Part shown: in pieces, positions 3,087-19,160 of the stretch | Position numbering within the stretch: the stretch's first letter is position 1 | Layout: each line of letters begins with the position of its first letter | Source: a virus | Lineage: Duplodnaviria > Heunggongvirae > Uroviricota > Caudoviricetes | Strand: one strand, 5' to 3' | DNA length: 19,160 nucleotides | Virus record (IMG/VR): IMGVR_UViG_648276647_000017 | Location: 1 to 19,160 of that record | Position numbers and translations under genes: made by a program | Notes under the pieces: model-generated | What the model was told of the DNA's origin: nothing | Database searches by the model: none | The model's input: the letters and a program-made list of their open reading frames with translations, nothing else

Positions 3087-3216
3087 AGCTCTGACCTCTA
3101 CGTTTTGCTACGAAAAATTTTTCTGAGAACTACGTCTGTTTATCCGTGGGTGTGGATAACGCAGTTCCGATCCGCATATTGCATGTATCAACATGCAAAA
3201 AGTTGCTAATTCGGAG

Positions 3217-3403
3217 TGGAACCACCTGCCCCCACCTGGAACCACCTTTTCCTAACCTTTCCCTCAATCGACTTATATATATATGGGGTTTCTAGTAGAA
3301 AGGCGGTTCCAGTGGTTCCAGTAGTTCCGCCCCGCTTGCCACAAGGTCTGCAAGGTGGAACCACCTTCTCTTCTAGGTGGTTCCGCGTGGTTCCAGCGGT
3401 TCC
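3217..3403. repeat. Iteron array flanking an AT-rich element; candidate origin of replication
   Basis: Nine copies of the hexamer GGAACC/GGTTCC in both orientations (3218, 3238, 3306, 3314, degenerate 3323, 3357, 3379, 3389, 3398), mostly within extended TGGAACCACC-type units, flanking the run cgacTTATATATATATGG (3269-3286). The array overlaps the 3' end of the primase gene and lies upstream of Q. Confidence 0.5.
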
Positions 3404-5559
3404 CAAACCTTGCATTTTTTCCCCCCAATTCGCCTTTGGGCACGCTTATACCCGCAATTTTGCAAAACATTACTAATTCGCATTTCTTCGCGTTTTCCGA
3501 TGCGGTCAGGATTTAGCCCAATCGCATCACGCAAAACATCACTTGCGCGTAAAAATTCGCAATTTCGCGGAAGTTCATTAGTCATCAGGTCGGGCGTGTC
3601 GAGCCATTTCTCTACCGTTTCAAGCCAAGCATCCTTGATGGTGTACTGTTCATGGACACTCGCTGCCAGTTGTTCAGCCTCACGGAACTGGATACCCCCC
3701 AGACGCTGAAACACCTCACGAGCCTCAGCCCAAAGTAAAAGAAGATCTCTTTTTATCGCTTTCACGTCGACTTTCGACACTTCCACGGGGAGCCAGCGAC
3801 GGTTACCAGTCTTGTCCGCAAGGAATTCGTCCTCATTAGTGGTACCAACGAACACCAGGCGACGAGGAAACTGGGTGGCGAACTCCCGGTATTTCGGGAT
3901 CCAGTTTTCGTGAGTACGCGTCACAAACGCTTTGATTGACTCCAGCTCTTTGGTATTAAGTCCGCGCAGTTCACCAATCTCTGCCACCAGCCGACCACGC
4001 ATTTTTCGAGCGAGATCATCGTCTTTTTCGGCAAAAGAGATTTCAGTAAAAAACGCAGGATCAGGGCTCAGTGCCTCCACTCCGGAAGACTTACCGCAGC
4101 CCTGCGGACCAACGAGGATCGGCACCATATCCGCTTTGATGCCTGGCTCCAGTACTCGCCCCGCCAACGCGGTCCACATGTACATAGACACCGCACGGGT
4201 ATAAGGCGTGTCGGCGGTACCGAAGTGCGTATGGTAGAAACATTCGATGCGCGGCACGCCATCCCACTCCAGTCCGTTCAGCCAGGTGATCGCTGAATCG
4301 AATGGTTGTTCATCGGCTGCAAGTAACACCACATCGCGAATAAGTTCACGACCAACAGGTTTAAATCCCCGCTTTTCCATCGTGATGCGCAGGCGCGCAT
4401 AATCCGCATCGGTGAAGGCCTGCCACTGGCCGGAGCCTGCCTGGGCGAACATGATTTCGTCACGGAACTGGTCAAAGCGAATATCGATGTCCACGAAGTC
4501 AGGACGCACAACGGCTTTTGCCGCGTTGCTGATGGTGGCCTCGATGCGGCCCCATTTGTCGCGCTCGAACGCCGGCAGCGGTAACGGCTCGGCCACTTCG
4601 GTGCTGGTCAGGTCTTCGAAATCGTCGTTGCGGATCCCGATGGCATTAAGGAAATCGCCGTCGTCGCGGTGCGCGCAGCTGGCGTGCAGGCACTTAAAAT
4701 GCCCCTGCTCAAAGCCCGCGGTACCGCCCGGGAAGTAAACCGTGCTCGTCGGGTCGCCGCCGGTGCTGTGGCCGTCTTCGAACGGGCAACGGATATAGCG
4801 CTCGCCGTTCGCGCCGTCCAGCAGCGTCCAGCCATTGGCATCGAGATATTCCGCCGTATCATCCGTGGCGCCGGGCGTGAAGGTTGAACGGTCGCGCATC
4901 TTCGTGCTGCCCGCTTCGGTGGTGACCGACACAGGTAACTGTTCCGCCAGTCGCTGCCACAGCGTTTCAAGCTGCTCACCAGTAATAGCCGGAGGTTCAT
5001 CCGGCAAACCGCCGTCCCATTCGATACGCGCGCCGCTGCTGTGCGTACCGCAGGCAACAAACTGCTGCCCGTTCGCCAGCAGCTCGATAATCCCCATATC
5101 GCCCGCCAGACGGTGGATGCGCTTACGGAAATCGCCGTCAACGGCCAGCAGGTACAGGCATTTGTTACTGTTGGCGCGCCAGCGACGCGGCGGCAGCTCA
5201 CCAAGCAGCTGCACCAGCGTTTTGCGAATATCGGCCTGGATATCTTCGTCTTCGCTGTCGCAGTCCAGCGCCAGCCAGCCATGGCCTGTACGCACGCAGA
5301 TGCCATAATCCGGTTCATTCGACCAGCGGGCAAAATCATGCTCAGTAACAACATGACTGGTCCATTGAGCAATACCGGTGACCTGACGGTCCCGGTTATA
5401 GCGACTTGGCGTCTTACCCAGCGCTTTCAGTTTACTGTCAGGGGATATAGTCGCACCGGGGTTACATACAACTGGGAGAAGATGAGCAGTTCGCCCCAAT
5501 ACCAGGTCGAAATGAAACCACTCATCAGGCGTAGCTCCCCATGGTTTGCTATCAGACAT
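3373..5559 (-). CDS. Bifunctional primase-polymerase / primase-helicase (PrimPol N-terminal domain plus P4-alpha/D5-like P-loop NTPase C-terminal domain)
   Basis: 728-aa ORF; Walker A motif GPQGCGKSS in the C-terminal half, N-terminal region typical of archaeo-eukaryotic-type primase-polymerases of phages and plasmids; AAGG Shine-Dalgarno 7 nt before the ATG; first replication gene downstream of the cro-like gene. Confidence 0.85.
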   Translation of the reverse strand: MSDSKPWGATPDEWFHFDLVLGRTAHLLPVVCNPGATISPDSKLKALGKTPSRYNRDRQVTGIAQWTSHVVTEHDFARWSNEPDYGICVRTGHGWLALDCDSEDEDIQADIRKTLVQLLGELPPRRWRANSNKCLYLLAVDGDFRKRIHRLAGDMGIIELLANGQQFVACGTHSSGARIEWDGGLPDEPPAITGEQLETLWQRLAEQLPVSVTTEAGSTKMRDRSTFTPGATDDTAEYLDANGWTLLDGANGERYIRCPFEDGHSTGGDPTSTVYFPGGTAGFEQGHFKCLHASCAHRDDGDFLNAIGIRNDDFEDLTSTEVAEPLPLPAFERDKWGRIEATISNAAKAVVRPDFVDIDIRFDQFRDEIMFAQAGSGQWQAFTDADYARLRITMEKRGFKPVGRELIRDVVLLAADEQPFDSAITWLNGLEWDGVPRIECFYHTHFGTADTPYTRAVSMYMWTALAGRVLEPGIKADMVPILVGPQGCGKSSGVEALSPDPAFFTEISFAEKDDDLARKMRGRLVAEIGELRGLNTKELESIKAFVTRTHENWIPKYREFATQFPRRLVFVGTTNEDEFLADKTGNRRWLPVEVSKVDVKAIKRDLLLLWAEAREVFQRLGGIQFREAEQLAASVHEQYTIKDAWLETVEKWLDTPDLMTNELPRNCEFLRASDVLRDAIGLNPDRIGKREEMRISNVLQNCGYKRAQRRIGGKKCKVWEPLEPRGTT

Positions 5560-5734
5560 GGGTTAAGCCTTTTTGTTTGACTACATTTTTTTGCTCCAAA
5601 ATCTTTTCAAGTTGAAGAGCTCTTAGCTCTGGGATTTCCTCCCCCCATTGAGATACGGCTCCTTTGGAAACCTTCAATAGTCTCGCTAGTTTCGCTTTAC
5701 TTCCTGCAAGCTCAATTGCTTCTGCTTTTTTCAT
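5552..5734 (-). CDS. Cro-like HTH regulator (Cro/CI-type, YdaS-like)
   Basis: Small ORF divergent from the CI-type repressor; helix-turn-helix region LAGSKAKLARLLKVSKGAVSQW. The track begins at a GTG (5743); the ATG at 5734 (MKKAEAIELAG...) is my preferred start. The 3' end overlaps the primase start. Confidence 0.6.
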   Translation of the reverse strand: MKKAEAIELAGSKAKLARLLKVSKGAVSQWGEEIPELRALQLEKILEQKNVVKQKGLTHV

Positions 5735-5743
5735 ACCCGTCAC

Positions 5744-5847
5744 CCAGGAAATATATGGTTATATGAGGTTAAGAAAACTAAACCCACAAGTCAAGAAAGC
5801 GATACCCTGATTAAGTTAAGCTAACTAAACTATATGAGGGTAAAACC
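5744..5847. promoter_or_regulatory. Immunity-region operator/promoter block between the divergent cro-like and CI genes
   Basis: Two copies of a 16-bp near-palindromic motif, GTTAAGAAAACTAAAC (5768-5783) and GTTAAGCTAACTAAAC (5815-5830), 14/16 identical. On the minus strand a TTGACT -35 (5794..5789) with a 17-nt spacer to TAACCT (5771..5766) overlaps the first copy, consistent with a CI-repressed cro promoter. Confidence 0.5.
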
Positions 5848-6540
5848 ATGATTAATGATCGTATTCGCGAGGCTCGTCGCAATGTCCACCTAACGCAGGA
5901 TGCGCTTGCTAAACGTATTGGTCTAACTAAAGCCACGATTTCACAATGGGAATCCGGAAACACCACACCTAACGGGAAAAATCTTATAAATCTGGCCGAA
6001 GCATTGAACGTTTCTCCAGAGTGGCTACTTTCAGGCAAAACAAGCGATACCAAAGAAATACATTCTAATGCACAAGTTGAGGGGGGGTTTTCTGTATGGG
6101 ACTCATCAACGCCATTAGAGGATGATGAAGTGGAAATACCGTTCTATCAGGAAATTGAACTATCTGCCGGTAATGGTACTTATGTTGATATAGATCGAAT
6201 GGGATGTAAGTTAAGATTCGCCCGTTCAACGTTGCGCAAAGCAGGTGTTGACGTAAATTGTGCGGCTTGTGTCAGCATCCACGGCAACAGCATGGAACCG
6301 GTATTACCAGATGGCGCTGTCGTCGGCATAGATACATCAAAAACAGGTGTAAAAGATGGTCAAATGTACGCTATAGACCAAGACGGATTACTTCGTGTCA
6401 AACTATTGTACCGTCTCCCAAGCGGACTCCGGATACGCTCTTTCAATAGGGATGAATACGCAGACGAAGAGTATTTTAATCAAGAGGCTAATAAAATCAG
6501 GATTATAGGCCAAGTATTTTGGTACTCCGTTCTGCTCTGA
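5848..6540 (+). CDS. cI: CI-type prophage repressor (N-terminal HTH_XRE, C-terminal S24 LexA-like autopeptidase)
   Basis: 230-aa ORF; HTH (LTQDALAKRIGLTKATISQWESG), candidate Ala-Gly cleavage site in ELSAGNG, catalytic Ser in GNSMEP and Lys in LRVKLL; GAGGG Shine-Dalgarno 7 nt upstream; divergent from the cro-like gene. Confidence 0.9.
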   Translation: MINDRIREARRNVHLTQDALAKRIGLTKATISQWESGNTTPNGKNLINLAEALNVSPEWLLSGKTSDTKEIHSNAQVEGGFSVWDSSTPLEDDEVEIPFYQEIELSAGNGTYVDIDRMGCKLRFARSTLRKAGVDVNCAACVSIHGNSMEPVLPDGAVVGIDTSKTGVKDGQMYAIDQDGLLRVKLLYRLPSGLRIRSFNRDEYADEEYFNQEANKIRIIGQVFWYSVLL

Positions 6541-6564
6541 GCGTAAATTCACTCTATACCACAT

Positions 6565-6591
6565 GCCCGCTTCCTAAGCGGGCTTTTCTTT
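6565..6591 (+). terminator. Intrinsic terminator downstream of the CI gene
   Basis: GCCCGCTT-cct-AAGCGGGC (perfect 8-bp stem, 3-nt loop) followed by TTTTCTTT, 25 bp after the CI stop codon. Confidence 0.65.
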
Positions 6592-6629
6592 ACCTATCCG
6601 AAAAAGTTCACTTTTCTTAACTACAACAC

Positions 6630-6685
6630 TTGACTTTGTGAGTTTAGAGGTCTTAACTATATGCGTGAAGTTAAGATATCTATAC
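6630..6685 (+). promoter_or_regulatory. Candidate CI-controlled early promoter (pL-equivalent) with two further operator-like motif copies
   Basis: TTGACT at 6630-6635 with a weak -10 (TTAACT, 6653-6658) at 17-nt spacing; operator-like copies GTTTAGAGGTCTTAAC (6642-6657) and GTTAAGATATCTATAC (6670-6685) share the GTTAAG-N4-CT(A/T)AAC pattern of the cI/cro intergenic sites. Confidence 0.3.
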
Positions 6686-6852
6686 ACAGATATTTAAACT
6701 ACAAGTCGAACGGCGCGACTCTAAACCATGCGTCGGGACCGTGGCGGGACAGGATGTCGGCAATACGGGTCAGTAAGTTCCCTTTGGGGTGCGGCGAAGC
6801 ACTGGGTCGAAGCCGCCGAACCACCAAAGTGAACTGAATGAGGAATCACAAG

Positions 6853-7047
6853 ATGCCTAAATATAAACTGGTTAATGACCTGGCTATCGGCGACAAAATT
6901 GAATTCAGTGGAAAACGGATAATGGAGGTTACCCAAAAAACTGACCGCGACCAGCATAACGTTAGCCTGACTCTAGTTAACAAACATACAGGTTCTGCGA
7001 CTAATACTTGTTTTAACCGAATGGATACCGTCGTCCTTCCCCCATAA
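6853..7047 (+). CDS. Hypothetical small protein (64 aa), stand-alone unit between the immunity region and the early operon
   Basis: ATG at 6853 (MPKYKLVNDLAIGDKIEF...) with a GAGGAA Shine-Dalgarno about 6 nt upstream; the track ORF starts earlier at 6838. Bracketed by the CI terminator upstream and a hairpin plus T-tract downstream. No family recognised. Confidence 0.45.
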   Translation: MPKYKLVNDLAIGDKIEFSGKRIMEVTQKTDRDQHNVSLTLVNKHTGSATNTCFNRMDTVVLPP

Positions 7048-7089
7048 CAATCCTCTGAATCCTCCATGTAATTGCTGTGTGTAGTCTTT

Positions 7090-7117
7090 GCCCGCCTCAA
7101 GTGACGGGCTTTTTTAT
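7090..7117 (+). terminator. Candidate intrinsic terminator after the small ORF
   Basis: GCCCGCC-tcaagt-GACGGGC (7-bp stem with one mismatch) followed by TTTTTTAT. Confidence 0.45.
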
Positions 7118-7141
7118 GTCTGAAAGCGCACTCGCAACAGC

Positions 7142-7324
7142 GTGCTCCCCGATATGAAAAAAGGAATACAACCGATGAAACCTGAACACATCCATCGACT
7201 GACGGGGCGCGATGTTCTCCGTTATCGCCGTAAAAACTTCGATTTGATGACCGGTCTGGCCGTTGCCACTGCGCTCGGTCTGATCATCACTTTCATTCTC
7301 CTTGTAGCGAGGCCCACAGTATGA
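7142..7324 (+). CDS. Hypothetical small tail-anchored membrane protein
   Basis: ORF ending in a single hydrophobic helix (LMTGLAVATALGLIITFILLV); the track start at 7142 is a GTG, alternative ATGs at 7154 and 7175, the latter with an AAGGAA Shine-Dalgarno (49-aa product); stop overlaps the start of the next gene (7321). Confidence 0.4.
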   Translation: MLPDMKKGIQPMKPEHIHRLTGRDVLRYRRKNFDLMTGLAVATALGLIITFILLVARPTV

Positions 7325-8223
7325 GTTTAGAAACCAGTCTAGAACTTAATAATCAACTTCTGGCACAACATAATGCGCTGCTTGAACGTCTTATCCGCAC
7401 AATGGCATCAGGCATTGTTATGCATCCTGACACGATTTCACGAGTGCAGGAATGTCGGGATACAGCAACTGAAACTGAAAATATGTCAGCGGCAATGACA
7501 CTGGATGATCTGGAGTTCAGCGACGTTATCGCACTGGCTGGTTTCTACCCGGTAGCCACCCCTATCACAGAAGACATGCTGCAACGTGCTGTTGCCTACC
7601 GTGATGCTGAAGGCGATAAACGAGTAGTTCAGATTGATGCTCTCGACAGCGCATTGCAGGGCGTCAAACGAGCCAGGGCGCTGCTTAAACCTGCTCTCCT
7701 GGACCTGTCCCGTAACATCCTTAAGTTCTGGGACGACCTGCCAACCATCGGCGAGCGACGTGCTTTTGCCGAGCAGCTACTTGATGCACCTGCGGATGGG
7801 CGTGATGAAGTTAAGCCGAAAAAGGCCAGTAACAAGGATGGAGAACGCACGGGGCCGTTTTACGTCAAAAATGTATCCGGCACAGCAGCCAGTGAACTCC
7901 ACACCTTACGCAAGTTGAACGAGATGCTGAAAAAAGGCCATATCGAGATCAACCGTGTTGAGTACCTTCAGCTGCAGGAAGAATTTGCACGCAGAGACGC
8001 AGCAAATTCCAGCCAGAATAATGACGCCAAAGATGACCATACAATTGATTTCGCGGCACTACGCAAACAAGCTGAAGGGTTGATCCTCCAGTTAGCAAAA
8101 GGGGGTTACCGGGCAGAAGCTATTGCAATTCTGGAAAAACAGGGAGCCAGGAAACTTGGTGAAGTAACGGATGAAAATCTCGCTGAAGTAATCACCCTGG
8201 CTGAAAAAGCACTGGAGGGTTAA
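7321..8223 (+). CDS. Hypothetical phage protein (300 aa), first large gene of the plus-strand early operon
   Basis: Long ORF, translationally coupled to the neighbours on both sides (4-bp overlap upstream, 2-bp gap downstream); acidic and helical, no recognisable catalytic motif. Confidence 0.55.
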
Positions 8224-8225
8224 TC

Positions 8226-9527
8226 ATGCCAGACGTTCATGCACAACTTTCTCCATCATCAGCGCATCGATGGATGCGCTGCCCAGGAAGTCTGGCGCTG
8301 GAGGCCACACAACCGGATAAAGAAACAACTTTTGCAATCGAGGGCACTGCAGCGCACGCGCTTGCTGAAAAAGTTCTACGAAACAGGCAAAGCCACCCGG
8401 AACACTACGCCGGATGCAATGTTTCTATGTTTCTCGGCTCATACCCCCTTCGCGAAAATCCTGATGATACATCTGGCCCACAGGTGGATGATGAAATGGT
8501 CGAAGCCGTTGGCCGGTATGTTGATACGGTCTGGACTCTTGCACAGAATAATGAACTATTGGTTGAACAACGTGTTGATTTCTCACATATAACGGGTGTG
8601 GAAGAATCTTTCGGAACTGCCGACGGCATAATCATCGCTGGTAACGAATTACAAATCCACGACCTGAAATATGGCAAAGGCGTCCGCATTGATGCAGAAC
8701 AAAATGAGCAACTACAACTGTATGCTCTGGGTGCGCTTGAACAATTCAGCATGCTGTATGACTTTGAAACTGTAAGATTATTTATTCACCAACCAAGGCT
8801 CAACCACGTTTCAGAATGGTCGTTAACCGTACAGGAACTTCAGTCTTTCGGTGAACGGGCGCTGGAGGCCGCAACCAGTGCGATCCTTGTTCTCAATATT
8901 GCTGAATGCGAAGGCATTGAGACACTACCGCTGGAAAACTTCATACCTGGAGAAAAACAGTGCCGCTTCTGTAAAGCAAAAGCTATTTGCACTGCCCATA
9001 AAATGCAGCATTTACAAACAGCGGCCAGCGATTTTGAAGATCTGACAAAGCCTGTCAGCGAAATAATCACCAATGCCAGCGCACGTGTACCTCTGTTAAC
9101 CATTGAGCAGCTTGCGGAGATCTATAGTCAGGCCGACTTTATTGAATCCTGGCTAAAGGCAGTACGGGACCGGGTTCACAATGAACTCAATGCCGGACAT
9201 CCGGTACCGGGGTTTAAACTGGTAACAGGAAAACAAGGTAACCGGGCCTGGAGTGATGAAGAGGCAGCTCGCGCACTTCTGAAGGACCAGTTCAGGTACA
9301 AAACTGAAGAAGTATTCGACTTTAAACTTATTAGTCCCACAAAAGCCGAAAAACTTATCAAAAAGGCCAGTCCGCGCCGTTGGTCAAAAGTCGAGGCACT
9401 GATAACACGAGCTGATGGTAAACCAACCGTCGTTCCCGAGTCAGACCCACGCCCCGCACTCAATATCAACCCTGTAAATGATTTCGACGACGTATCCGAC
9501 GATACGCTAACCGCAGACCTCATCTGA
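8226..9527 (+). CDS. DUF2800-family PD-(D/E)XK nuclease (Cas4/RecB-like, with C-terminal Cys cluster)
   Basis: 433-aa ORF; N-terminal [15 protein letters not shown] signature, nuclease core around [20 protein letters not shown], Cys cluster [10 protein letters not shown]; typical partner of DUF2815 and phage PolA. Confidence 0.8.
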
Positions 9528-9542
9528 TTTAAGGAAATACCC

Positions 9543-10091
9543 ATGAAACTGAAGCTGAACAATGTTCGTCTGGCCTTCCCGTCTCTGTTTGAAGCTAAAA
9601 CTGTAAACGGCGAAGGCGATCCACGTTTCTCCGCAGTATTTTTAATGTCACCCAAACACCCACAACTGGAAGAAATCCGTAAAGCTATGAAGCAGGTAGC
9701 GAAGGAAAAATGGGGAGAGAAGTGGGAGCCCATTTATAACCAGCTGGAGAAAAAACTCAATCTGTGCCTGCATGATGGTGATGAAAAAGCAGAGTATGAA
9801 GGCTTCCCCGGTAATTTCTTCCTGAATGCTGCTAACAAAGCGCGCCCAGCTGTTCTTGATCGCGATCGTTCGCCACTTATTCAGGCTGACGGACGTCCCT
9901 ATGCAGGGTGCTATGTAAACGCCGTTATCGATATCTGGGCACAGGACAATAATTTCGGTAAACGCATTAATGCCTCACTCGGCGGAGTCCAGTTCCTGCG
10001 AGACGGCGATGCATTCGCTGGCGGCGGAGTGGCAAGCGCTGACGATTTCGACGATATCAGCGAAGGTGCTGATGCTGAAGCACTAATTTAA
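9543..10091 (+). CDS. DUF2815-family protein (phage single-strand DNA-binding-like)
   Basis: 182-aa ORF; MKLKLNNVRLAFPSLFEAK start and acidic C-terminal tail (DDFDDISEGADAEALI) characteristic of this SSB-like family; immediately follows the DUF2800-like nuclease. Confidence 0.75.
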   Translation: MKLKLNNVRLAFPSLFEAKTVNGEGDPRFSAVFLMSPKHPQLEEIRKAMKQVAKEKWGEKWEPIYNQLEKKLNLCLHDGDEKAEYEGFPGNFFLNAANKARPAVLDRDRSPLIQADGRPYAGCYVNAVIDIWAQDNNFGKRINASLGGVQFLRDGDAFAGGGVASADDFDDISEGADAEALI

Positions 10092-10142
10092 AAATATTCA
10101 TCCCCCAGCTACGTGCTGGGGTATCTCATGAGGGAAAGTATA

Positions 10143-10784
10143 ATGTCACAGCCCGTATTAACTAATCACCTTAAAACTCAAATCATCAATAACGCACTTG
10201 AGAAAGCGGGTATTCCCAAACGTAAATCAGCACTACGAGCTGCTCGTGTTGAATGGGCCGAACGTGTTCGGCTTGCAGCTATCGGGGGCGTAGAGAAAGA
10301 AGCTGAAATATTAAAAAATATAAAAAAGATTGAATCCATGGTCACAAAAGTCCCTGATTCATTAAAAACCAATAGTTCTTTAATTCGAAAAGATTGCTGC
10401 ATATATCTCAATCTGGCTGGAGCCAGAGCAAACATTTATTTCAATGGCAACTACAGAGGTTATGAATCAGGAGCCCCCGAGCATATTAATAAAATAGCAC
10501 CTGCAGAATTTACTCTACTTGGCGAAGATCCTCTGGTAACGGAGTTTTATAGCTTTGATGCTCTCTACACACAAATTAAAAGTGATGAAACCGAAATCAT
10601 ACAGAACGTCAGCGCGGCTCTAAATAAAGTTCGGACAGTAAAACGATTACTGGATGTATGGCCCGAAGCTAAAGAGCTGCTTCCAACAGACGCACCGCCA
10701 GTCCCTTTAGCACCAGCAGTACATCGAGAGACATTAAATGAAATGATAGGCCTTCCTACCAATACAGTGTCTGATACTCAATAA
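10143..10784 (+). CDS. Hypothetical protein (213 aa), AT-rich accessory gene
   Basis: ATG at 10143 (MSQPVLTNHL...) preceded by GAGGGA about 7 nt upstream; the track start at 10113 is a GTG lying inside a hairpin. Markedly AT-richer than the flanking replication genes; no family recognised. Confidence 0.5.
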   Translation: MSQPVLTNHLKTQIINNALEKAGIPKRKSALRAARVEWAERVRLAAIGGVEKEAEILKNIKKIESMVTKVPDSLKTNSSLIRKDCCIYLNLAGARANIYFNGNYRGYESGAPEHINKIAPAEFTLLGEDPLVTEFYSFDALYTQIKSDETEIIQNVSAALNKVRTVKRLLDVWPEAKELLPTDAPPVPLAPAVHRETLNEMIGLPTNTVSDTQ

Positions 10785-11467
10785 CAAGGGGGATGCTTAT
10801 TATATGATTTTGAACGTTTTACAATCTCGTTAAGAGGCGTGAAATCAAAATCTCTGAATAACACATCAGGATACTTCGCTCTTGCTTTATCCAGCAAACC
10901 AGTTAAAGTATTTTTTGTGTTACCCAACATTGTATTAACCGCCACTACATGTCTAATTTCTGGAGGTTTATCTATACCACCAGAAATTGCTTCATTAAGA
11001 ACCGACGCCAGTGGGGTTTGTCCCTTACTTGTTGAATCCCACAGCGTCATTAACAGACGAGCTGCGTCTATAAATAGCTTTTTGTCAGCATTTGGCTTGA
11101 CAGTAATACCGGAACTACCTGAGCCAGAACCGGAACGTTCTATTGCTGCACTGGCATCCGATTTCATAGGATTAAATAACGGAAGCTCTGTACAACCGAT
11201 ACGCCGAATGAAATCCTTTGCAACATCTCTACCACAGAAAAAAGCCCCTGTACAATTTTCATCAGAGCGTTTTTTAAATGAAAAACAATAGTACTGATCG
11301 GTTAACGGATAACCGGAATAACTGGTTTTAGTTTGTCCAGTAATAAGTTTCAGGTGTGCAACAGGCTGAATAATAAAATCCCGAACTATCGCATCTTTTA
11401 TGTCGTTACCACGGTGACAATAATATTCAGGTAATCCATTAGGCTGTCTCTTATTACCCACAGTCAT
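10778..11467 (-). CDS. Hypothetical protein (229 aa), AT-rich accessory gene antisense to the replication operon
   Basis: Minus-strand ORF whose 3' end overlaps the previous gene by 7 bp (convergent); Cys/aromatic-rich N-terminal domain (YYCHRGN...QYYCFSF...NCTGAFFCGRD), a GSGSGSSG linker and a distinct C-terminal domain; no family recognised. Confidence 0.55.
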   Translation of the reverse strand: MTVGNKRQPNGLPEYYCHRGNDIKDAIVRDFIIQPVAHLKLITGQTKTSYSGYPLTDQYYCFSFKKRSDENCTGAFFCGRDVAKDFIRRIGCTELPLFNPMKSDASAAIERSGSGSGSSGITVKPNADKKLFIDAARLLMTLWDSTSKGQTPLASVLNEAISGGIDKPPEIRHVVAVNTMLGNTKNTLTGLLDKARAKYPDVLFRDFDFTPLNEIVKRSKSYNKHPPCY

Positions 11468-11528
11468 TAGTTGTCTCCTTTAATTCATGATATCTAGCAT
11501 TTAACCATATACCATATGAGGATATTTT

Positions 11529-13592
11529 ATGTCCAATATACTATGGGGCGACCTGGAAACCTATTGTGACATTCCGATCAACAACGGTACCCATGCGTAT
11601 GCCGAAGGCGTTGAAGTGATGCTTTTCGCATGGGCTATCAACGACGGGCCAGTAAACGTGTGGGATATCACTGCCGGTGGTGGTATTCCACACGGCTTAT
11701 ACGAAGCAATCGCAGATCCTGAAACCCTGCTTTATTTCCATAACTCTCACTTCGACCGCACCGTTCTGCGTTATGCAATGCCGCGACTGGCACCGCCAGT
11801 CGAACGTTGGCGCGACACGATGGTGCAGGCGCTGGCGCACGGTCTCCCGGGGTCTCTGGGAGAACTCTGCGAAATACTAGGCGTCCCGCAAGACAAAGCG
11901 AAGGACAAAGAAGGTAAAGCGCTGATCCAGCTGTTCTGTAAGCCACGCCCGAAAAACAGCAAACTGCGTCGGGCCACCAGCAAAACCCACCCAGAAGAAT
12001 GGCGGCGCTTTGTTGCTTACGCCGGACTGGATATCGAGGCAATGCGCGAAGTCTGTAAACGTCTGCCGAAGTGGAATTATCAAGGGACAGAGCTGGCGCT
12101 CTGGCATCGTGATCAGCAGATCAACGACCGGGGCGTCTGCATGGACATGCAACTCGCGCGCGCTGCGATCGAAGCGGTAGACCAGGAGCAAAAGCGCCTG
12201 GCAAAGCGTACACAGGAAATGACTGATGGCGAAGTGCAGGCAGCCACACAACGAGACGCGTTGATTAAGCACATTGTTGAATCCTACGGTGTGGAGCTAC
12301 CAGACATGCAACGCAGTACTCTGGAACGTCGTATTGCCGACCCCGATTTACCATCTGCCGTGAAAGAACTGCTGGCTATCCGACTGCAGGCCAGTACTAC
12401 CAGCACCAGTAAATACAAGGCACTGATGAAAGGCGTAAGCCACGACGGGCGCTTACGCGGTACGCTACAGTTCTGCGGGGCGTCACGTACCGGTCGTTGG
12501 GCCGGACGGCTATTCCAGCCCCAGAATCTTCCCCGCCCTTCACTAAAACAGGAACAAATAGACGAAGGCATCGAAGCACTGAAAGCCGGATGTGCAGACC
12601 TGCTGTTTGACAATATCATGGAACTAACCAGTTCAGCGTTACGTGGCTGCATTATCGCGCCAACAGGCAAAAAAATGGTGGTAAGTGACTTGTCGAACAT
12701 TGAAGGCCGTATGCTGGCATGGCTGGCAGGAGAAGAATGGAAACTGAATGCATTCAGAGAGTACGACGCCGGAACGGGTCCGGACTTATATAAACTGGCG
12801 TATGCAAAAGCTTTCGATATTGCACCAGATGATGTTGATAAACACATGCGTCAGATCGGTAAAGTCATGGAACTCGGTCTGGGTTATGGTGGTGGTGTGT
12901 CGGCCTTCATCACTTTTGCACTGGTTTACGGTCTCGATCTCGACGAGCTGGCAAACGCTGCACTGCCAAACATTCCCCGCGATGTTATCCGCGAGGCGAA
13001 AAGCTGGTACGGCGAATCGGTTAAACGTAAGTCAACCTACGGCCTTTCTGAACGGGTATTTATCGCCTGCGACTCACTTAAACGTCTCTGGCGCCGGGCG
13101 CATCCCGCGACCTGTGATTTCTGGTACGAACTGGAGCGCACCGTCCGCACTGCAATCGCCACACCGCAAAAAACATTGTATTGCGGTTATCTTAAAATCC
13201 GCCGCGATGGCGCGTGGCTGCGCATACAGCTACCATCCGGACGCGCTGTATGCTACCCGTCTCCGGTTATCGAAAAAGGGAATATCACCTACATGGGTGT
13301 TAACTCTTATTCGCGTAAATGGCAACGACTCAAAACCTACGGCGGAAAGCTGGTGGAGAACGTCACCCAGGCGGCCGCCCGCGACGTTCTGGCCGGAAAC
13401 ATGCCGCTTATCGAAGATGCCGGTTACAGCATTGTGCTGACGGTACACGACGAGGTGATCACCGAATCACCTGACACAGAAGATTTCAACGATAAAGCGC
13501 TTTCCGCGCTTCTCTCCACTAACCCCGAATGGGCGCCCGATATCCCACTGAACGCTGGCGGTTTTGAGGCGTACCACTACCGTAAGGATTAA
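11529..13592 (+). CDS. Family A DNA polymerase (phage PolA with N-terminal 3'-5' exonuclease domain)
   Basis: 687-aa ORF; Exo I motif (WGDLETYCD), polymerase motif A ([19 protein letters not shown]), motif B ([16 protein letters not shown]), motif C (VLTVHDEV); GAGGA Shine-Dalgarno upstream. Confidence 0.9.
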
Positions 13593-13597
13593 CTCCT

Positions 13598-13813
13598 ATG
13601 TCATTTAAATACCGGGATAATCCACTTTATTACAGGGCTGCAAGGGAGGCTTTGCGACTTGAACAATCCGGCGAATATGACCGGGCAGCGAAGGTCTGGG
13701 CAAAAGCCAACCGCGAATCACATCACGAACTGAATCAGGAATGGAGTGAACGCCGGTCTGAATTTTGTCTGATGCAGAACATGCGCGAAAAGCGTAAGGC
13801 GGTCGAAGAATGA
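13598..13813 (+). CDS. Small regulator-like protein, possibly PerC/Pch family
   Basis: 71-aa ORF translationally coupled to PolA; AAREALRLEQSGEYDRAAKVW resembles the LE..GL.RRAA..W core that I recall for PerC-family activators. Family assignment is tentative. Confidence 0.45.
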   Translation: MSFKYRDNPLYYRAAREALRLEQSGEYDRAAKVWAKANRESHHELNQEWSERRSEFCLMQNMREKRKAVEE

Positions 13814-14070
13814 TGCGTAATACAGCGAAACTACAACTGGGGTTCTCCCCGCTATCCAAAAAGATCATGTTGGCAAAAATGCGCGATGTTGACGGCGGTC
13901 GCTTGCGAGTTGGCAATGACCCTGGGCGTGACGTAACGAACGAAGCCGCGCAGTTAGTTTGGCAACTGGTAATGGCAGAAGGCGGCGAAATTAGCTGGGG
14001 TCTTGATGATGGTAGCCAGATGGTACTGAGGGCTGAAAAGCAGGTGTGGAATGATGGCCTACGAACGTGA
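13810..14070 (+). CDS. Hypothetical small protein (86 aa)
   Basis: ORF with ATGA start/stop overlap to the upstream gene and a 20-bp overlap with the downstream VRR-NUC gene; no family recognised. Confidence 0.4.
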   Translation: MMRNTAKLQLGFSPLSKKIMLAKMRDVDGGRLRVGNDPGRDVTNEAAQLVWQLVMAEGGEISWGLDDGSQMVLRAEKQVWNDGLRT

Positions 14071-14347
14071 AAGCCTTATCGAAAAGCACCTCGTCGCCGA
14101 AGTGAAAAAGGCTGGCGGGGTCGCCTTTAAGTTCGTGTCACCCGGTCGCCGCTCGGTACCGGATCGCATTGTCCTGCTACCCGGCGGTCGCATCGTCTTT
14201 GTCGAATGCAAAGCGCCAGGCAAACCACCACGGCCTGACCAGTTACGCGAGCACGAACGGCTGCGTGCGCTGGGCTTTACCGTGGTGGTATTAGATAGCA
14301 AAAATCTGGAGGGGATATTGTGCGGGGAGCCTATTACAACGAAATAG
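14051..14347 (+). CDS. VRR-NUC domain nuclease (PD-(D/E)XK fold)
   Basis: 98-aa ORF; core PDRIVLLPGGRIVFVECKAPG supplies the D...E.K catalytic pattern typical of VRR-NUC proteins; AGGTG Shine-Dalgarno upstream. Confidence 0.8.
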   Translation: MMAYERESLIEKHLVAEVKKAGGVAFKFVSPGRRSVPDRIVLLPGGRIVFVECKAPGKPPRPDQLREHERLRALGFTVVVLDSKNLEGILCGEPITTK

Positions 14348-15348
14348 ACCCTAACGCAGCACAATGGCTGCGTAACCTTATTGCTGCAGGTCATATCGCC
14401 CCGGGTGAAGTTGATGAAAGGAGTATCGAAGATGTCGCACCAGACGACTTGCGCGGATTCACACAGTGCCATTTCTTCGCCGGGATCGGCGTCTGGTCTT
14501 ATGCTCTGCGTCTGGCCGGATGGCCGGATAACAAACCGGTCTGGACAGGAAGTTGCCCGTGCCAGCCTTTCAGCTCGGCTGGTAAAGGCGCTGGGTTTGA
14601 TGACGAGCGGCACCTATGGCCAGCACTATTCCACCTCATCAGCGAGCGACGCCCTAAGCTGGTATTTGGCGAACAGGTTGCGGGAGTCAATGCCTGGTTC
14701 GATCTTGTACAAACTGACGTGGAAGCAGTGGACTACGCCTTTGGGCTTGTCCCGTTTCCGGCTGCGGGCGTCGGTGCCCCGCATATCCGAGATAGAGCGT
14801 ATTGGGTGGCCGACGCCAGCGGCGAGCGATCACAGCGGTGGCGAAAGCGCCTCAATAGCATTGAGGAAGATGTCTGGAGATCGTCGACCGTCCGGCAACA
14901 CGCTACACAGCTCCCTGCGGAATTTTGCTCACCTGGCGGGGTGGTACACCCCAACCTGCAACACAAACCCACAGCCGGAGACAAAACGCGGTCTAGAAAC
15001 CTTAGCGGGACTATCCAGATTAGCGGGATGGCCGACAGTGACGACGATCGACAACAACCAAGTTCGTGCCGAGGGCGCAGCGGCCAATCATACCGAACGG
15101 GGAACGACCCTCGGCGGCGCTGCGAGAATCTGCGGCCCAATACGATTAACGGCTTCTGGGATGGTGCTGACTGGCTCCTCTGCCGGGATGGTCGCTGGCG
15201 GCCAGTTGAATCCGGCACATGCCCGTTGGCTAATGGGATTACCTCCAGAGTGGGACGACTGCGCGCCTACGGCAACGCGATAGTCGCACCAGCTGCCGCA
15301 ACATTCATCCGCTCGTTTATGGAATGCGCAGGATACGACCTTATTTAA
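14320..15348 (+). CDS. DNA cytosine-5 methyltransferase (Dcm-like), apparently split across two reading frames
   Basis: GTG start at 14320 with a strong GGAGGGG Shine-Dalgarno. Frame 1 carries C5-MTase motifs ([27 protein letters not shown]) and a C-terminal motif-X-like [12 protein letters not shown]. The overlapping frame-2 ORF (14381-15283) carries GWPTP-type repeats and [17 protein letters not shown]. Confidence 0.65.
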
Positions 15349-15665
15349 TGCCACTCACATCTGGCATGATACCGTCCAGAAGGTAATTGCTTATATACAA
15401 CGGAGCCGCCCATGGCATAAGTATAAGCATGAAGTTTTGTCCAGAAGTCCCCATAAACTAGTATTGGGGCTAAAAATTTTGGATCGCTAACCATAGATGT
15501 AGCAGGAAGCTCGAAACCTTTAGAAAGAATGTTTACCAGTGAAGGGTAATTTTCAAAATCAGTGCTATTCCCGCCCACCTCTAAAGCATCCAGTTCAAAG
15601 TCGAGCACTCCACCATTTTTGTAATACTCCGAAACAGTTAACCCTGATGTTAACAAAGTAGCCAT
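15345..15665 (-). CDS. Hypothetical protein (106 aa), AT-rich antisense gene between the methyltransferase and the helicase
   Basis: ATG at 15665 with a strong AGGAGG Shine-Dalgarno 8 nt upstream; AT-rich body; 3' end overlaps the methyltransferase stop by 4 bp (convergent); start codon 34 bp from the divergent SNF2 helicase start. Confidence 0.55.
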   Translation of the reverse strand: MATLLTSGLTVSEYYKNGGVLDFELDALEVGGNSTDFENYPSLVNILSKGFELPATSMVSDPKFLAPILVYGDFWTKLHAYTYAMGGSVVYKQLPSGRYHARCEWH

Positions 15666-15699
15666 TAAACAATCCTCCTGAATTTTAAAGGGTTACATT

Positions 15700-17094
15700 A
15701 TGCCCAAAGTTTTCACGCCTCGCCCCTACCAAGATCTAATTATCAACCACGAAATCGACATTCACCGCTGCAACATCTGGGCAGGGATGGGGATGGGTAA
15801 AACCGTAGCGACACTCACCACGCTGGAAGATCTTTTCATGGCGGGCTCAGAGACACAGCCCGCGCTGGTCCTCGCGCCGCTACGCGTTGCAGCAAGCACA
15901 TGGCCGGATGAAGCGCTGAAATGGGGGCATCTGCGCAATATCGAGGTGCAGCCGATTGTTGGTAACGCCAAAGCGCGCTCTGCAGCGCTGGCGAACAGCA
16001 ACGCGAGCGTGTTCACCATCAACTACGATAACCTTGTCTGGCTGGTTGAGGAATTGGGAGAACGATGGCCGTTCGGTACTGTCATTCCAGATGAAAGCAC
16101 CCGGCTAAAATCCTTCCGGCTGCGAGGTGGTGGTAAGCGCGCGGCGGCGCTGGGCAAAGTGGCGCATAAGTATGTCCAGCGCTGGATAAATCTCACCGGT
16201 ACGCCAGCACCGAACGGCCTGGTAGATTTGTGGGGACAATTGTGGTTTGTGGACCAGGGGCAACGTCTCGGGCGCACTTACGGCGCGTTTACCTCACGCT
16301 GGTTCAACTCGATACAGTTTCCGGGGCAGAGCTGGACCAAACTGGAGCCGTTTGCTCACTCACAGGCTGAAATACAGCGAGCGTTAGCCGATGTGACCCT
16401 CTCGCTGGATGCGGCCGACTGGTTCGATATCAAAGACCCCATCCATAACGTAATCCGCGTGGATATGCCGCCGAAGGCCCGTCAGCAGTATCGTGAAATG
16501 GAAAAGGAAATGTTCCTCGAGCTGAATGGCGAAGGCATCGAAGCACCAAACGCCGCGGCAAAGACACTGAAGTGTCTGCAAATCGCCAGTGGCGCAGTAT
16601 ACACAGACGACACCGGAAGTTGGTCAGAACTGCATGACACCAAACTGCAGGCGCTGGACAGCATACTGACCGAAGCAGCTGGCGCACCTGTGCTGGTTGC
16701 TTATCACTGGAAACACGATCTTGAACGCTTGCTTAAAGCATTCCCTCGCGGTCGTCACCTCGACCAAGATCCACAGACACTGCGCGACTGGAATTCCGGA
16801 AAGATTCCTGTTCTCTTTGCACACCCAGCCAGCGCGAGCCACGGTCTGAACATGCAGGACGGCGGAAACATACTGGTATTTTTCTCACACTGGTGGGACC
16901 TGGAGCAGTATCAGCAAATTATTGAACGTATCGGCCCCACCAGGCAGATACAGGCCGGACACAATCGTCCGGTATTTATTCACCACATTATTGCGGCCGA
17001 CACTATGGACGAAATGGTGATGGAGCGGCGCAACTCAAAACGAACAGTGCAGGACATCCTGCTCAATGCCATGAAAAAGAGAGGTATAGCATGA
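15700..17094 (+). CDS. SNF2-family (DEAD/DEAH-like) helicase
   Basis: 464-aa ORF; PRPYQ Q-motif, Walker A GMGKT, DEST box (IPDESTRLKS), motif III-like LTGTPAPNG; AAGGG Shine-Dalgarno upstream. Confidence 0.85.
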   Translation: MPKVFTPRPYQDLIINHEIDIHRCNIWAGMGMGKTVATLTTLEDLFMAGSETQPALVLAPLRVAASTWPDEALKWGHLRNIEVQPIVGNAKARSAALANSNASVFTINYDNLVWLVEELGERWPFGTVIPDESTRLKSFRLRGGGKRAAALGKVAHKYVQRWINLTGTPAPNGLVDLWGQLWFVDQGQRLGRTYGAFTSRWFNSIQFPGQSWTKLEPFAHSQAEIQRALADVTLSLDAADWFDIKDPIHNVIRVDMPPKARQQYREMEKEMFLELNGEGIEAPNAAAKTLKCLQIASGAVYTDDTGSWSELHDTKLQALDSILTEAAGAPVLVAYHWKHDLERLLKAFPRGRHLDQDPQTLRDWNSGKIPVLFAHPASASHGLNMQDGGNILVFFSHWWDLEQYQQIIERIGPTRQIQAGHNRPVFIHHIIAADTMDEMVMERRNSKRTVQDILLNAMKKRGIA

Positions 17095-17291
17095 GCGAGA
17101 AACCCGACGATTTACTCACCCCAGATGAAGTATGCCAAAAGTTAGGTATTACACAGAAAACGCTATGTGAGTGGAATATTAAGCATCGTCATCGGGCTAT
17201 CCTGGCACCAATTCGTTTCAGTGCAAAAGTAGTTCGTTATGAGCGCCGAAATGTCGACGCTTTTATTCAAAAATGTCGCAGCCAGTATTAA
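17091..17291 (+). CDS. AlpA/excisionase-like HTH protein (candidate Xis)
   Basis: 66-aa ORF; LLTPDEVCQKLGITQKTLCEW helix-turn-helix typical of AlpA-family prophage regulators and excisionases; lies next to the integrase with a 4-bp convergent overlap. Confidence 0.65.
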   Translation: MSEKPDDLLTPDEVCQKLGITQKTLCEWNIKHRHRAILAPIRFSAKVVRYERRNVDAFIQKCRSQY

Positions 17292-18685
17292 CCTCGCCGC
17301 CGTAGCAATGCCACCTGCGCAAGTATGCTCCGCTCGTGAGCCTCGAAAGCTTCGCGCTTCAACGCAATCTCTTCCTGTAAAATCTCATCAGAAAAGTCGT
17401 AATGTTCTGCCATCGGGTCATCTGACTTGCTGGAGTGGTGAAGGCAAAGGAGGCTGATTTCCCTTCGGTCTGAGCGGGAATAGCCTCTTTCCTTCATCAA
17501 GGCAATAACATTGCTCTTAAGGAATTTACGGCACATCGTATTAAATGCACCGTCTTTCCCTTTAACAGTCCCATCATGTTTTATTCCTTTTACAGCCCCG
17601 TCCGGGCTGTATGTTTTCACCAGCTTATCCAGTGATCGTTTTGAAAATGGCTGCATTGGATCACGTGGCTGCAAAAATACATAATCCCTGTTGCACTCAG
17701 GAACTGAATCACGCCAGGCTTTCTGCTCGTCGATAATCCGCCGGATCTCAGGCGTTATCGGCAGGCGGAAAGCCTTTTGTGTTTTCATAGCCCCTCGCAT
17801 GCCGATAACCCCTTCCGGATAAACAATTTCACCAGCCTCCTCGTGAACGTAGTCCCAGCGCAGGTTATGGACATTAATCGGACGAACACCAGTGATGATC
17901 ATGAAGCGAACAGCATTCTTCTGGTGTACAGAGGTGCAGGCAGCAACATTGAGCCAGAGTCGGGCGATTGATTCAATATCGGTAAAAAGCCGTGTGGGGG
18001 TAGGTTTCTGTACGCGGGAGGAAACATAATCATCTGGCAGACTGGCGGCAACATTGCGGCCGTTGCAAAGAGTAGGTGCGCAGAACTTCCAGAACCGACG
18101 GAGCTCGGCAAACAACTCCAGGGCGTTATTGTTCGAGCGAGTGGCGATCCACTCGTCCAGCACTTCCACCAGCCGACTGTATGTTACGTCGCTGAACACC
18201 TCGCGCTCGCCGAACGTTGATTTAATCCGGTCGATACGCACCCCGTAGGTTGTGAAACTGTCCGGGCTCAGCTTCTGACGGGCTACTTTGGCTTTGAGGT
18301 CATCCCGGTACATTTCCAGCGCTGCATGTACGGACTCTGCCCGCAGTCCACCGTCAGCCATACCTAGTGCTTTTTCGCGCGCCAGCTGGATAGCGAGCTC
18401 CGGCCACTCGCCGAGCTTTTTACCTTTGAGGCCCATCTTTTTTGGAAACTCGGCGTAAAATGTAACCTTACCGGCTTTGCTGAAATCGATACGGAGATAG
18501 TTCTCTTTTTCATATTTGGAACGGCGAGCCACGCCGGAAGCAGCGAGGATGATTTTGGCGGCAGCAACACAGATTTTCATGTGTGCGCTGGTATAGGGGG
18601 GTTTACAGGCGTCCCATTTTTCAGAAGCGGCTAAAACATCGTCATTATTGGGGCTATCCGGATTATGTGTTACAGTGCGCGGCAT
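17288..18685 (-). CDS. int: Tyrosine-type site-specific integrase
   Basis: Large ORF at the prophage edge with an arm-binding-like N-terminal region (YLRIDFSKAGKVTFYAEF...LGEWPELAIQLAREKA) and a C-terminal catalytic domain. The track start (18691) is a TTG; the ATG at 18685 has an AAGGA Shine-Dalgarno; an internal ATG at 18580 is an alternative start. Confidence 0.85.
   Translation of the reverse strand: MPRTVTHNPDSPNNDDVLAASEKWDACKPPYTSAHMKICVAAAKIILAASGVARRSKYEKENYLRIDFSKAGKVTFYAEFPKKMGLKGKKLGEWPELAIQLAREKALGMADGGLRAESVHAALEMYRDDLKAKVARQKLSPDSFTTYGVRIDRIKSTFGEREVFSDVTYSRLVEVLDEWIATRSNNNALELFAELRRFWKFCAPTLCNGRNVAASLPDDYVSSRVQKPTPTRLFTDIESIARLWLNVAACTSVHQKNAVRFMIITGVRPINVHNLRWDYVHEEAGEIVYPEGVIGMRGAMKTQKAFRLPITPEIRRIIDEQKAWRDSVPECNRDYVFLQPRDPMQPFSKRSLDKLVKTYSPDGAVKGIKHDGTVKGKDGAFNTMCRKFLKSNVIALMKERGYSRSDRREISLLCLHHSSKSDDPMAEHYDFSDEILQEEIALKREAFEAHERSILAQVALLRRRG

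Positions 18686-18890: not shown

Positions 18891-19160
<270 letters not shown>

Follow-up and report, generated by a model that had tools for sequence, protein, structure and literature searches.

The stretch of DNA considered here, positions 1 to 19,160 of the IMG/VR virus record IMGVR_UViG_648276647_000017, contains the early/replication half of an Escherichia coli prophage and is referred to at its full length of 19,160 nt as the window. Our analysis concerns two genes that lie within its replication operon, between the gene of a DUF2815/Enc34-type single-stranded DNA-binding protein (SSB) and the gene of a family A DNA polymerase (PolA). We call the plus-strand Nmad5 gene gene A and the minus-strand UCP028583/PF27729 gene gene B. 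Gene A (10143-10784, plus strand) has the same orientation as the replication operon and encodes 213 amino acids from an ATG start, with a GAGG motif 9 bases upstream; its mechanical open reading frame (ORF) opens at a GTG at 10113, and the 213-residue form is that of the RefSeq annotation. Gene B (10778-11467, minus strand) encodes 229 amino acids and terminates in a stop codon at 10780-10778, resulting in a 7-bp overlap of the 3' ends of the two genes (10778-10784). Both are poor in G+C (GC) relative to their neighbours. The GC fraction is 0.41 in gene A and 0.39 in gene B against 0.49 in DUF2815 and 0.54 in PolA, and the GC fraction of third codon positions (GC3) is 0.30 and 0.28 against 0.46 and 0.56, respectively. 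An earlier note, made from the letters of the window, had described an AT-rich, convergent pair of 213 and 229 residues with a 7-bp 3' overlap, and the ORF coordinates, GC and GC3 agree with that description. In composition the segment is foreign to its surroundings. Homology and the ratio of nonsynonymous to synonymous substitution rates (dN/dS) rule out artefactual ORFs. By sequence comparison both genes are real, as gene A gives a full-length match to Nmad5 and gene B has homologues with a dN/dS of 0.10-0.16.

A variable slot between DUF2815 and PolA

A 2.4-kb query spanning both genes matched 157 of 5,426 complete E. coli genomes, all at chromosomal positions, the best match being that of strain 2011C-4315 (99.8% identical). 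In this strain the element is flanked by tail, head and lysis genes at one end; at the other lies an integrase, which adjoins yfhL. Isolated phages vB_EcoM-606R2, -611R5 and -689R2 match the operon at ~97% identity across 67% of its length. The host element belongs to a temperate E. coli myophage family that integrates beside yfhL and has these three phages as relatives.

Gene B was present in 27 of the 157 related genomes with the flanking region and absent from the other 130. In an evenly spaced sample of 60 records from the related genomes, the position between DUF2815 and PolA was filled by Nmad5 and gene B in 10 records, by Nmad5 and another gene in 12, and by a single antisense ORF without Nmad5 in 30; an HNH endonuclease was annotated in two (one of which also had a BRO-N gene), and six were further diverged. 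Nmad5 thus occurs in ~37% of this sample. The antisense alternatives in the opened loci encode proteins of 89 (GC 0.40), 209 (0.29), 199 (0.32) and 166 (0.29) residues. Transmembrane (TM) segments were predicted in all of these, and none had a Pfam or PADLOC match; one opened locus had a plus-strand BRO-N gene in the slot. At least six distinct fillings were recognised, with slot lengths of 537-1437 bp, and the variants share homology exactly as far as the DUF2815 stop codon and again precisely from the PolA ATG onwards. Neither gene behaves as a core component of the replication module, given the 27 of 157 relatives for gene B and the ~37% of 60 records for Nmad5. The slot was read in five other E. 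coli relatives and was occupied in all five, with cargo of 537-1259 bp. Because every relative read has an occupied slot, SSB and PolA are not normally adjacent in this phage family, contrary to what the earlier note had stated. Its suggestion that comparison with related prophages might reveal a variable slot was correct; the opposite outcome that it had named, conservation of both genes in all relatives with ordinary composition, was not found, since the slot is variable and the GC3 of both genes is low.

Comparison with the C11-type prophages (locus L002) located one exchange. Identity of 98-100% extends to ~10322, inside Nmad5; beyond this point it is 60-77%, until high identity returns at 11502. 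One recombination block (10322-11502) therefore brought in the 3' two-thirds of Nmad5, gene B and most of the spacer upstream of PolA. Cargo would be swapped by recombination in the conserved flanking genes, and in one instance inside Nmad5, and the slot would hold two unrelated passengers, Nmad5 and gene B. We consider it highly probable that this slot is a hypervariable one for accessory genes and that the 1.4-kb segment is its present cargo.

Comparable positions are reportedly present as defence and accessory hotspots in P2/P4 temperate phages and satellites (the subject, it is said, of Rousset et al. in 2022) and as the "morons" of lambdoid phages (reportedly Juhala/Hendrix in 2000). Common to these and to the present slot are a fixed position between conserved core genes, rapid turnover of cargo among near-identical relatives, and AT-rich cargo that is usually antisense or independently transcribed and often encodes small membrane proteins or defence genes. 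Unlike both, the present slot lies inside the replication operon, between DUF2815 and PolA, of a different phage family, and no cargo seen in it matches a validated defence system. No description of a DUF2815/PolA hotspot was found in the literature searched.

Gene A is a member of the Nmad5 family

Gene A matches the Pfam model Nmad5 (PF18757) with an E-value of 1.4e-54 and 185.7 bits (cut-off 27), its residues 6-205 aligning with profile positions 3-206 of 206, and it matches phrog_1965 with an E-value of 2e-57. RefSeq labels it a "Nmad5 family putative nucleotide modification protein". The claim that the plus-strand gene has no recognisable family is consequently incorrect. Homologues of Nmad5 are found in 154 phage records, including lambdoid, Shiga toxin (Stx)-converting, Vibrio and ~70-kb Salmonella and Klebsiella phages; Salmonella phage SPN3UB has a 63%-identical copy in its nin region. 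Comparison of Nmad5 with Protein Data Bank (PDB) sequences returned nothing. Nmad5 is a known phage early-region family of unknown biochemistry.

The genomic context of gene A was compared with those of two groups of phages. M6-like thymidine-hypermodifying phages share the Nmad5 family with the window, where the gene is a full-length profile match. Their cassette surrounds Nmad5 with a hydroxymethylase, aGPT-Pplase, a kinase, a radical-SAM (rSAM) protein and a pyridoxal phosphate (PLP) enzyme, whereas the window has none of these. RefSeq likewise annotates no aGPT-Pplase, kinase, radical-SAM or hydroxymethylase partner genes in the near-identical prophage. A DNA cytosine methyltransferase, 3.5 kb downstream, is the only modification gene, and it is missing from C11, a relative that has Nmad5. 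With no partner enzymes here, the family assignment does not reveal the activity of gene A. In Dhillonvirus, Nmad5 is deletable; cloning it is toxic, and one Lys-to-Glu substitution within it lets the phage evade the Tmn defence (PMC11846954). Among the close relatives of the window prophage Nmad5 is optional.

Nmad5 is probably co-transcribed with the replication operon. A GC-rich stem-loop, CCCCAGC-TACGT-GCTGGGG (10103-10121, plus strand), lies between the DUF2815 stop codon and the Nmad5 ribosome-binding site, with no T-run after it. The predicted fold has an energy of -17.1 kcal/mol (z = -2.77 against shuffled sequences), and the sequence is common to C11-type relatives and identical in L002. 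In E. coli ECZP248, one of the 27 gene B prophages, an IS1A element lies between DUF2815 and Nmad5 (L039 991-1688); gene B and PolA are intact there, and Nmad5 is cut off from the upstream operon.

Gene B is a member of an uncharacterised two-domain family

Going by the annotation of its homologues, gene B belongs to the Pfam family PF27729, named UCP028583 in the contig annotations, and the claim that the minus-strand gene has no recognisable family must also be corrected; the family itself is uncharacterised. A word-indexed search with gene B retrieved only 17 clusters, every one with a precomputed PF27729 annotation. The assignment of gene B itself rests on the precomputed annotation of the 99%-identical cluster P0001 and of all 22 homologues. 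Scans of gene B against Pfam, PHROGs and NCBIfam returned nothing useful, and the empty Pfam result is due to the absence of the PF27729 model from the Pfam set scanned. An exhaustive profile search recovered 421 representatives (87 at E<=1e-30), mostly proteins of 200-230 residues matching end to end and spread over Proteobacteria, Firmicutes and Fusobacteria. A tblastn search with gene B against 50,697 phage genomes gave no match, and in IMG/VR gene B occurs in only seven predicted proviruses, five at 99-100% identity and two at 56%, similar to the Pantoea-type copies described below. No mention of PF27729 or UCP028583 was found in the literature searched.

The AlphaFold2 model of gene B (predicted local distance difference test, pLDDT, 82; predicted template modelling score, pTM, 0.80) bears out the architecture that had been read from the translation, namely a Cys/aromatic-rich N-domain joined by a Gly-Ser linker to a second domain. 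The N-domain (residues 13-104; 11431-11156, minus strand) contains C17, C61, C72, C78 and C93 together with Y59, Y60, F62 and F98, and is modelled as an alpha/beta fold with a helix at 21-30, strands at 31-40, 58-66 and 73-79, and a helix at 80-90. The linker (residues 105-121; 11155-11105, minus strand) is disordered, with pLDDT <50, and the C-domain (residues 122-229; 11104-10781, minus strand) is helical, with five helices in the model. Gene B conforms to the architecture of the family as a whole, which consists of an N-domain with the pattern CRG...AHxKLLxGQxKxS...DxYYxF...CG...LPLFNP, a low-complexity linker and a helical C-domain with a VNT motif. The homologues annotated as UCP028583, a name derived from PIRSF, share this two-domain arrangement. 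No TM segment was predicted in gene B.

Only F62, G79 and N178 are invariant in an alignment of 51 members. In a wider alignment, Y59, Y60, F98, P100 and F209 are nearly invariant, and C17, R19, R24, H38, Q45, S49, D57, C78 and N99 are 70-87% conserved. No obvious catalytic residue set is apparent; the protein may have a Cys/His metal site. When 51 diverse family members were scanned singly, there were scattered single matches and no consistent Pfam or PHROG match, and no helix-turn-helix (HTH), WYL or other DNA-binding family was detected among them. A profile search against PDB sequences gave 0 matches for the family, and all fold comparisons for gene B were below any confident threshold. 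The dN/dS among gene B homologues was calculated for pairs with unsaturated synonymous sites, pairs of chromosomal copies included, and its low values indicate that gene B is under purifying selection.

Partial relatives correspond to the N-domain. On the Vibrio alfacsensis plasmid pSEA2 (L029 4986-5318) the N-domain is a separate 110-residue protein; its gene precedes those of a large DNA methyltransferase and a DEAD/DEAH helicase in an element bounded by an integrase. Several Staphylococcus aureus plasmid matches span only the N-domain part of the query.

The upstream element and chromosomal copies of gene B

The antisense orientation of gene B means that it requires a promoter of its own. 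From sequence and alignment, its start is separated from the PolA ATG (11529) by a 61-bp spacer (11468-11528), which includes both the gene B ribosome-binding site AAGGAG (11480-11475, minus strand) and the PolA ribosome-binding site GAGG (11518-11521, plus strand). The same arrangement is found in two prophage lineages with PolA proteins of only 70-71% identity. In both, gene B (57-58% identical) is antisense and directly upstream of PolA with a spacer of 58-61 bp. One of the two, the Pantoea-type prophages, has a different left neighbour, DUF2303.

Gene B also occurs as a stand-alone gene in Dickeya, Enterobacter, Morganella and Providencia, in some cases among housekeeping genes. These copies align with the window from the gene B stop codon to 11536-11560 (L003, L006, L017, L022 and L024) and therefore keep the spacer and the first 8-32 nt of PolA, a remnant that corresponds to 11529-11560 (plus strand) of the window. 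In the Dickeya copy (L003) the PolA ATG is mutated to CCG. A core of the upstream region, TTGGACAtAAAAtAACCTttcaTGaTATATGGTTAAA (11536-11500, minus strand), overlaps the PolA ribosome-binding site and ATG (11529-11531). It is kept in ten loci, including chromosomal copies without PolA, though the synonymous sites of the gene are saturated. We infer from this conservation that the core is a promoter or operator of gene B, seemingly built over the PolA ribosome-binding site and ATG.

The PolA remnant marks the phage slot as the origin of the chromosomal copies. With reading frames intact and dN/dS low, these copies further indicate that gene B is useful without the phage, which argues against a replication-accessory role. 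No description of a phage-to-chromosome transfer marked by a PolA remnant was found in the literature searched. Gene B is probably an accessory gene that is transcribed on its own.

Genes A and B occur independently

The earlier note had treated the two genes as a functional pair, and their distribution does not agree with this proposal, as each gene is found without the other. Another antisense gene accompanies Nmad5 in ~20% of the relatives sampled, and Nmad5 occurs alone in phages of other kinds (lambdoid, Stx and Vibrio phages, and ~70-kb phages of Salmonella and Klebsiella). Conversely, gene B stands beside DUF2303 in place of Nmad5 in the Pantoea-type prophages, and in its stand-alone copies the homology to the window stops at the gene B stop codon, with no Nmad5 remnant. 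These co-occurrence data rule out Nmad5 and gene B as an obligatory pair.

Genomic neighbourhoods of gene B relatives

A number of gene B relatives adjoin known defence genes. One is next to a complete Lamassu system (LmuA, LmuB and LmuC; E-values down to 1.8e-235) at the edge of a prophage. Others are convergent with SIR2-domain genes, in Dickeya and on the Pectobacterium plasmid pPA21A (where ToxN/AbiQ is nearby), and three SIR2 genes in total adjoin family members. In locus L041 (4371-8621) a UCP028583 gene lies 115 bp downstream of, and on the same strand as, a HamB helicase of the Hachiman type (2e-77) that has a HIRAN domain at its C-terminus. One relative adjoins Mrr, another adjoins a D12 methyltransferase, and one belongs to an integrative island that also has WYL, DUF2787 and deaminase genes. 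GajB (7e-197), AAA_21 and a KAP NTPase were found among 70 neighbour ORFs pooled from 11 metagenomic loci. Relatives are further present on plasmids of Staphylococcus, Vibrio, Lysinibacillus and Enterobacterales.

An operon resembling a published defence system was seen in loci L004 (3660-5741) and L005, where a relative 33% identical to gene B is the third, tightly spaced gene of an operon. A HigB-like gene comes first, an Xre-peptidase gene matching PD-Lambda-2_B (1.5e-38) second and the UCP028583 gene last, and the operon is embedded in a type I restriction-modification locus between hsdR and hsdS/hsdM. The third-gene position after HigB-like and PD-Lambda-2_B-like genes is shared with PD-lambda-2 (Vassallo et al. 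2022, PMC9519451). In that system the third of the components is a relative of a P4 antitoxin and is needed for defence and not for toxin neutralisation (PMC9519451); in L004/L005, by contrast, the third gene is UCP028583, whose homologue P0017 had no PADLOC match. Gene B of the window also differs from PD-lambda-2 in having no toxin or peptidase partner. An assignment as PD-Lambda-2_C is thus not indicated either by the PADLOC result for P0017 or by the gene content of the window, which includes no A or B genes.

Neighbours of ~700 residues in L017 and L004 were considered as a shared partner and rejected; they are mutually unrelated and have no Pfam or PADLOC match. On a Staphylococcus simulans plasmid (L026 5989-7552) the UCP028583 homologue heads a three-gene same-strand cassette, followed by genes for 220- and 82-residue proteins with no Pfam match; this cassette is IS6-bracketed and lies near Fst and YefM/YoeB toxin-antitoxin loci.

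Proposed role of gene B and alternative explanations

The arrangement of the locus, the purifying selection on gene B and the neighbourhoods of its relatives can be combined in the following proposal. Gene B would encode a soluble two-domain protein; its transcription would run against the operon and start from a conserved element of its own that lies upstream and overlaps the PolA start. With this orientation, the protein could be produced in a lysogen whose replication genes are repressed. It would act in conflict between phages and other mobile elements, providing the lysogen with defence or superinfection exclusion. For this it would bind a component of phage or nucleic-acid nature, and a Cys/His metal site in the N-domain may be what it binds with. 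It would be self-sufficient in this prophage, and relatives elsewhere would fill the accessory position of a PD-lambda-2-like toxin-antitoxin operon. Taken as a whole, this proposal of lysogen-expressed accessory cargo, with a probable part in phage defence or exclusion exerted through binding, appears to us evenly balanced between right and wrong. A role of gene B in defence or superinfection exclusion, considered by itself, falls a little short of an even chance, and the suggestion that it acts by non-catalytic binding is tentative and on balance doubtful. The earlier note had called the segment novel accessory or defence cargo. For the antisense gene, the accessory part of that description holds and its relatives do stand beside defence systems; the defence part has no PADLOC match behind it and can be proposed only conditionally.

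A more far-reaching version would make PF27729/UCP028583 an unrecognised anti-phage immunity protein without a known fold relative. It would act alone here and elsewhere as a portable phage-sensing module for varied effectors (that of the PD-lambda-2-type operon and perhaps SIR2, Lamassu and Hachiman), and its enterobacterial clade would have been born in the slot upstream of PolA in temperate myophages and then captured by chromosomes with a promoter built on the PolA start. We regard this version as unlikely in its entirety.

Several observations weigh against a defence role. A search of PADLOC-DB v2.0.0 with gene B found only IetA, at E=0.031, and seven further family members found none at E<=1. 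A soluble protein without a recognisable effector domain would be unusual as a stand-alone defence, and adjacency to many different systems is also expected of a regulator. One homologue is part of a long same-strand operon of an S. aureus conjugative plasmid, a context that fits counter-defence equally well. Three of the loci examined first, and several of the metagenomic loci, are housekeeping neighbourhoods, and the neighbourhood association was counted without a background control rate; for these two reasons the association of PF27729 members with defence neighbourhoods is suggestive and not proven. Signals for separate transcription are incomplete as well. The earlier note had placed a gene B promoter region at 11468-11528; a consensus scan called no sigma-70-like minus-strand promoter in or above this interval, and what stands of the claim is the conserved upstream core. 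The same scan listed a weak terminator-like hairpin (10744-10761, minus strand) 17 nt past the gene B stop codon, within the 3' end of Nmad5. Its folding energy is no better than that of shuffled sequence (z = -0.54), and the hairpin is probably of no significance.

The main rival explanation is that gene B is a DNA-binding regulator or adaptor with a role like that of the BrxR/WYL or CapW regulators, which are found alongside many kinds of defence system; in the prophage, gene B would regulate its own expression and possibly modulate PolA through the shared 61-bp region. This would also explain the conserved upstream element, as the upstream region is far more conserved than synonymous sites, in the manner of an operator. 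The variety of unrelated systems that the family adjoins (Lamassu, Hachiman, SIR2 and the PD-lambda-2-like operon, with Gabija-type genes among the neighbour ORFs), the varying orientation of the gene, its small two-domain product without a catalytic signature, and the N-domain-only homologue upstream of a methyltransferase-helicase pair are all compatible with regulation. However, the 51 members scanned show no HTH, WYL or other DNA-binding family, and the fold matches lie below any confident threshold. Moreover, purifying selection acts on gene B where it stands alone among housekeeping genes and has no partner that it could regulate, and most prophage relatives lack gene B and keep the same PolA. 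We judge a regulatory role to be improbable on these grounds, although it deserves the most attention among the alternatives.

Still less probable is a counter-defence function, in which gene B would shield the carrier phage or plasmid, for example by sequestering a signal or by blocking an effector such as SIR2. A small, soluble and non-enzymatic protein carried on prophages, plasmids and islands would suit such a function, as would the same-strand operon of the S. aureus plasmid and the repeated proximity to SIR2 genes. Several properties of gene B do not suit it. The gene is antisense to the early replication operon and so would not be expressed with the early genes; neither the 50,697 sequenced phage genomes nor PHROGs include it; on chromosomes it is conserved as a gene standing by itself; and in L004 and L041 its relatives are co-oriented and operonic with defence genes.

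A replication-accessory factor coupled to PolA, or a transcript acting as an antisense regulator of the replication operon, is very improbable. The divergent position directly upstream of PolA in two lineages recalls such a coupling, and in the lack of a convincing terminator the gene B transcript would run antisense into Nmad5. Against this, the 130 close relatives without gene B have the same flanking DUF2815 and PolA sequences, and the phages vB_EcoM-606R2, -611R5 and -689R2 match the operon, 606R2, the one inspected, having a different slot cargo. Intact copies are under purifying selection where the PolA remnant is <=32 nt. Absence from most relatives and persistence without PolA together rule out a replication-accessory role. 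Least credible of all is a single two-gene system of Nmad5 and gene B, whether a toxin-antitoxin-like pair or a modifier with its reader, since the 7-bp overlap, the shared low GC3 and the joint arrival as one block relative to the C11 type are outweighed by the separate occurrence of each gene described above.

Other variable positions and remaining features of the window

The proposed accessory slot is not the only position of the operon at which gene content differs among relatives. The interval from the DNA cytosine methyltransferase to the SNF2 helicase contains an AT-rich antisense ORF of 106 residues (15345-15665, minus strand; GC 0.41, GC3 0.35) with no Pfam or PADLOC match. Its equivalent is a 265-residue multi-TM gene (GC 0.32) in C11 and two plus-strand ORFs in phage 606R2, which suggests that the operon has a second variable slot here. 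The PolA/ANR junction is empty in the window (13592-13598, a 5-bp gap); in C11 (L002 9905-10666) and in vB_EcoM-606R2 (L031 6149-6910) it is occupied by a TIR-domain gene of 253 residues, for which PADLOC gives a match to the candidate PDC-S35 (2e-108), and the junction would be a third cargo slot. In E. coli VL7S7 (L012 1643-2158) an HNH endonuclease gene is inserted between DUF2800 and DUF2815. The RefSeq PolA coding sequence of VL7S7 is annotated from further downstream (ATGCTGTTC...), and the sequence upstream of it still resembles the usual PolA 5' end.

The gene order of the window begins with a VapE-type primase/helicase (minus strand), a cI-like repressor, a 300-residue protein, a DUF2800 nuclease and the DUF2815/Enc34-type single-stranded DNA-binding protein. 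It continues through Nmad5, gene B, PolA, an ANR regulator, DUF7446 and VRR-NUC, and ends with the DNA cytosine methyltransferase, the 106-residue antisense ORF, the SNF2 helicase and the integrase. Directly after the integrase (17288-18691) lies yfhL (18900-19160), which encodes a 4Fe-4S ferredoxin, and the attachment site is therefore expected in 18692-18899. In its left part, where the lysis and immunity region lies, the window is out of register by several hundred bp with the prophage of 2011C-4315, to which it is otherwise 99.8% identical, and this indicates mosaicism there as well. The centre of the VapE/primase gene (4400-5200) reaches a GC of 62% against a window mean of 50% and forms another compositional patch. 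An Rfam scan of the whole window returned nothing.

Significance

Accessory slots and defence hotspots of temperate phages are already known, as is the Nmad5 family, and PF27729 is catalogued and uncharacterised. New in this analysis are the hotspot inside a replication operon, the context-based lead on PF27729 and the PolA-remnant evidence of phage-to-chromosome transfer. Current ideas are not overturned by these results, as such hotspots and accessory genes are well known and candidate defence genes have been reported in large numbers; they offer a useful lead for experiment and would not surprise specialists. If the reading of gene B as accessory conflict cargo holds, PF27729, with ~421 representatives and no fold relative among solved structures, would gain its first functional lead. 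At least three slots for conflict genes would then exist in the replication operon of this common prophage family (157 of 5,426 complete E. coli genomes), namely DUF2815/PolA, PolA/ANR with its TIR gene, and the position between VRR-NUC/methyltransferase and SNF2, each of which could be mined for defence or exclusion genes. The PolA remnant in the chromosomal copies would, on the same reading, be a clear marker of a prophage accessory gene that has moved to bacterial chromosomes and been kept by them.

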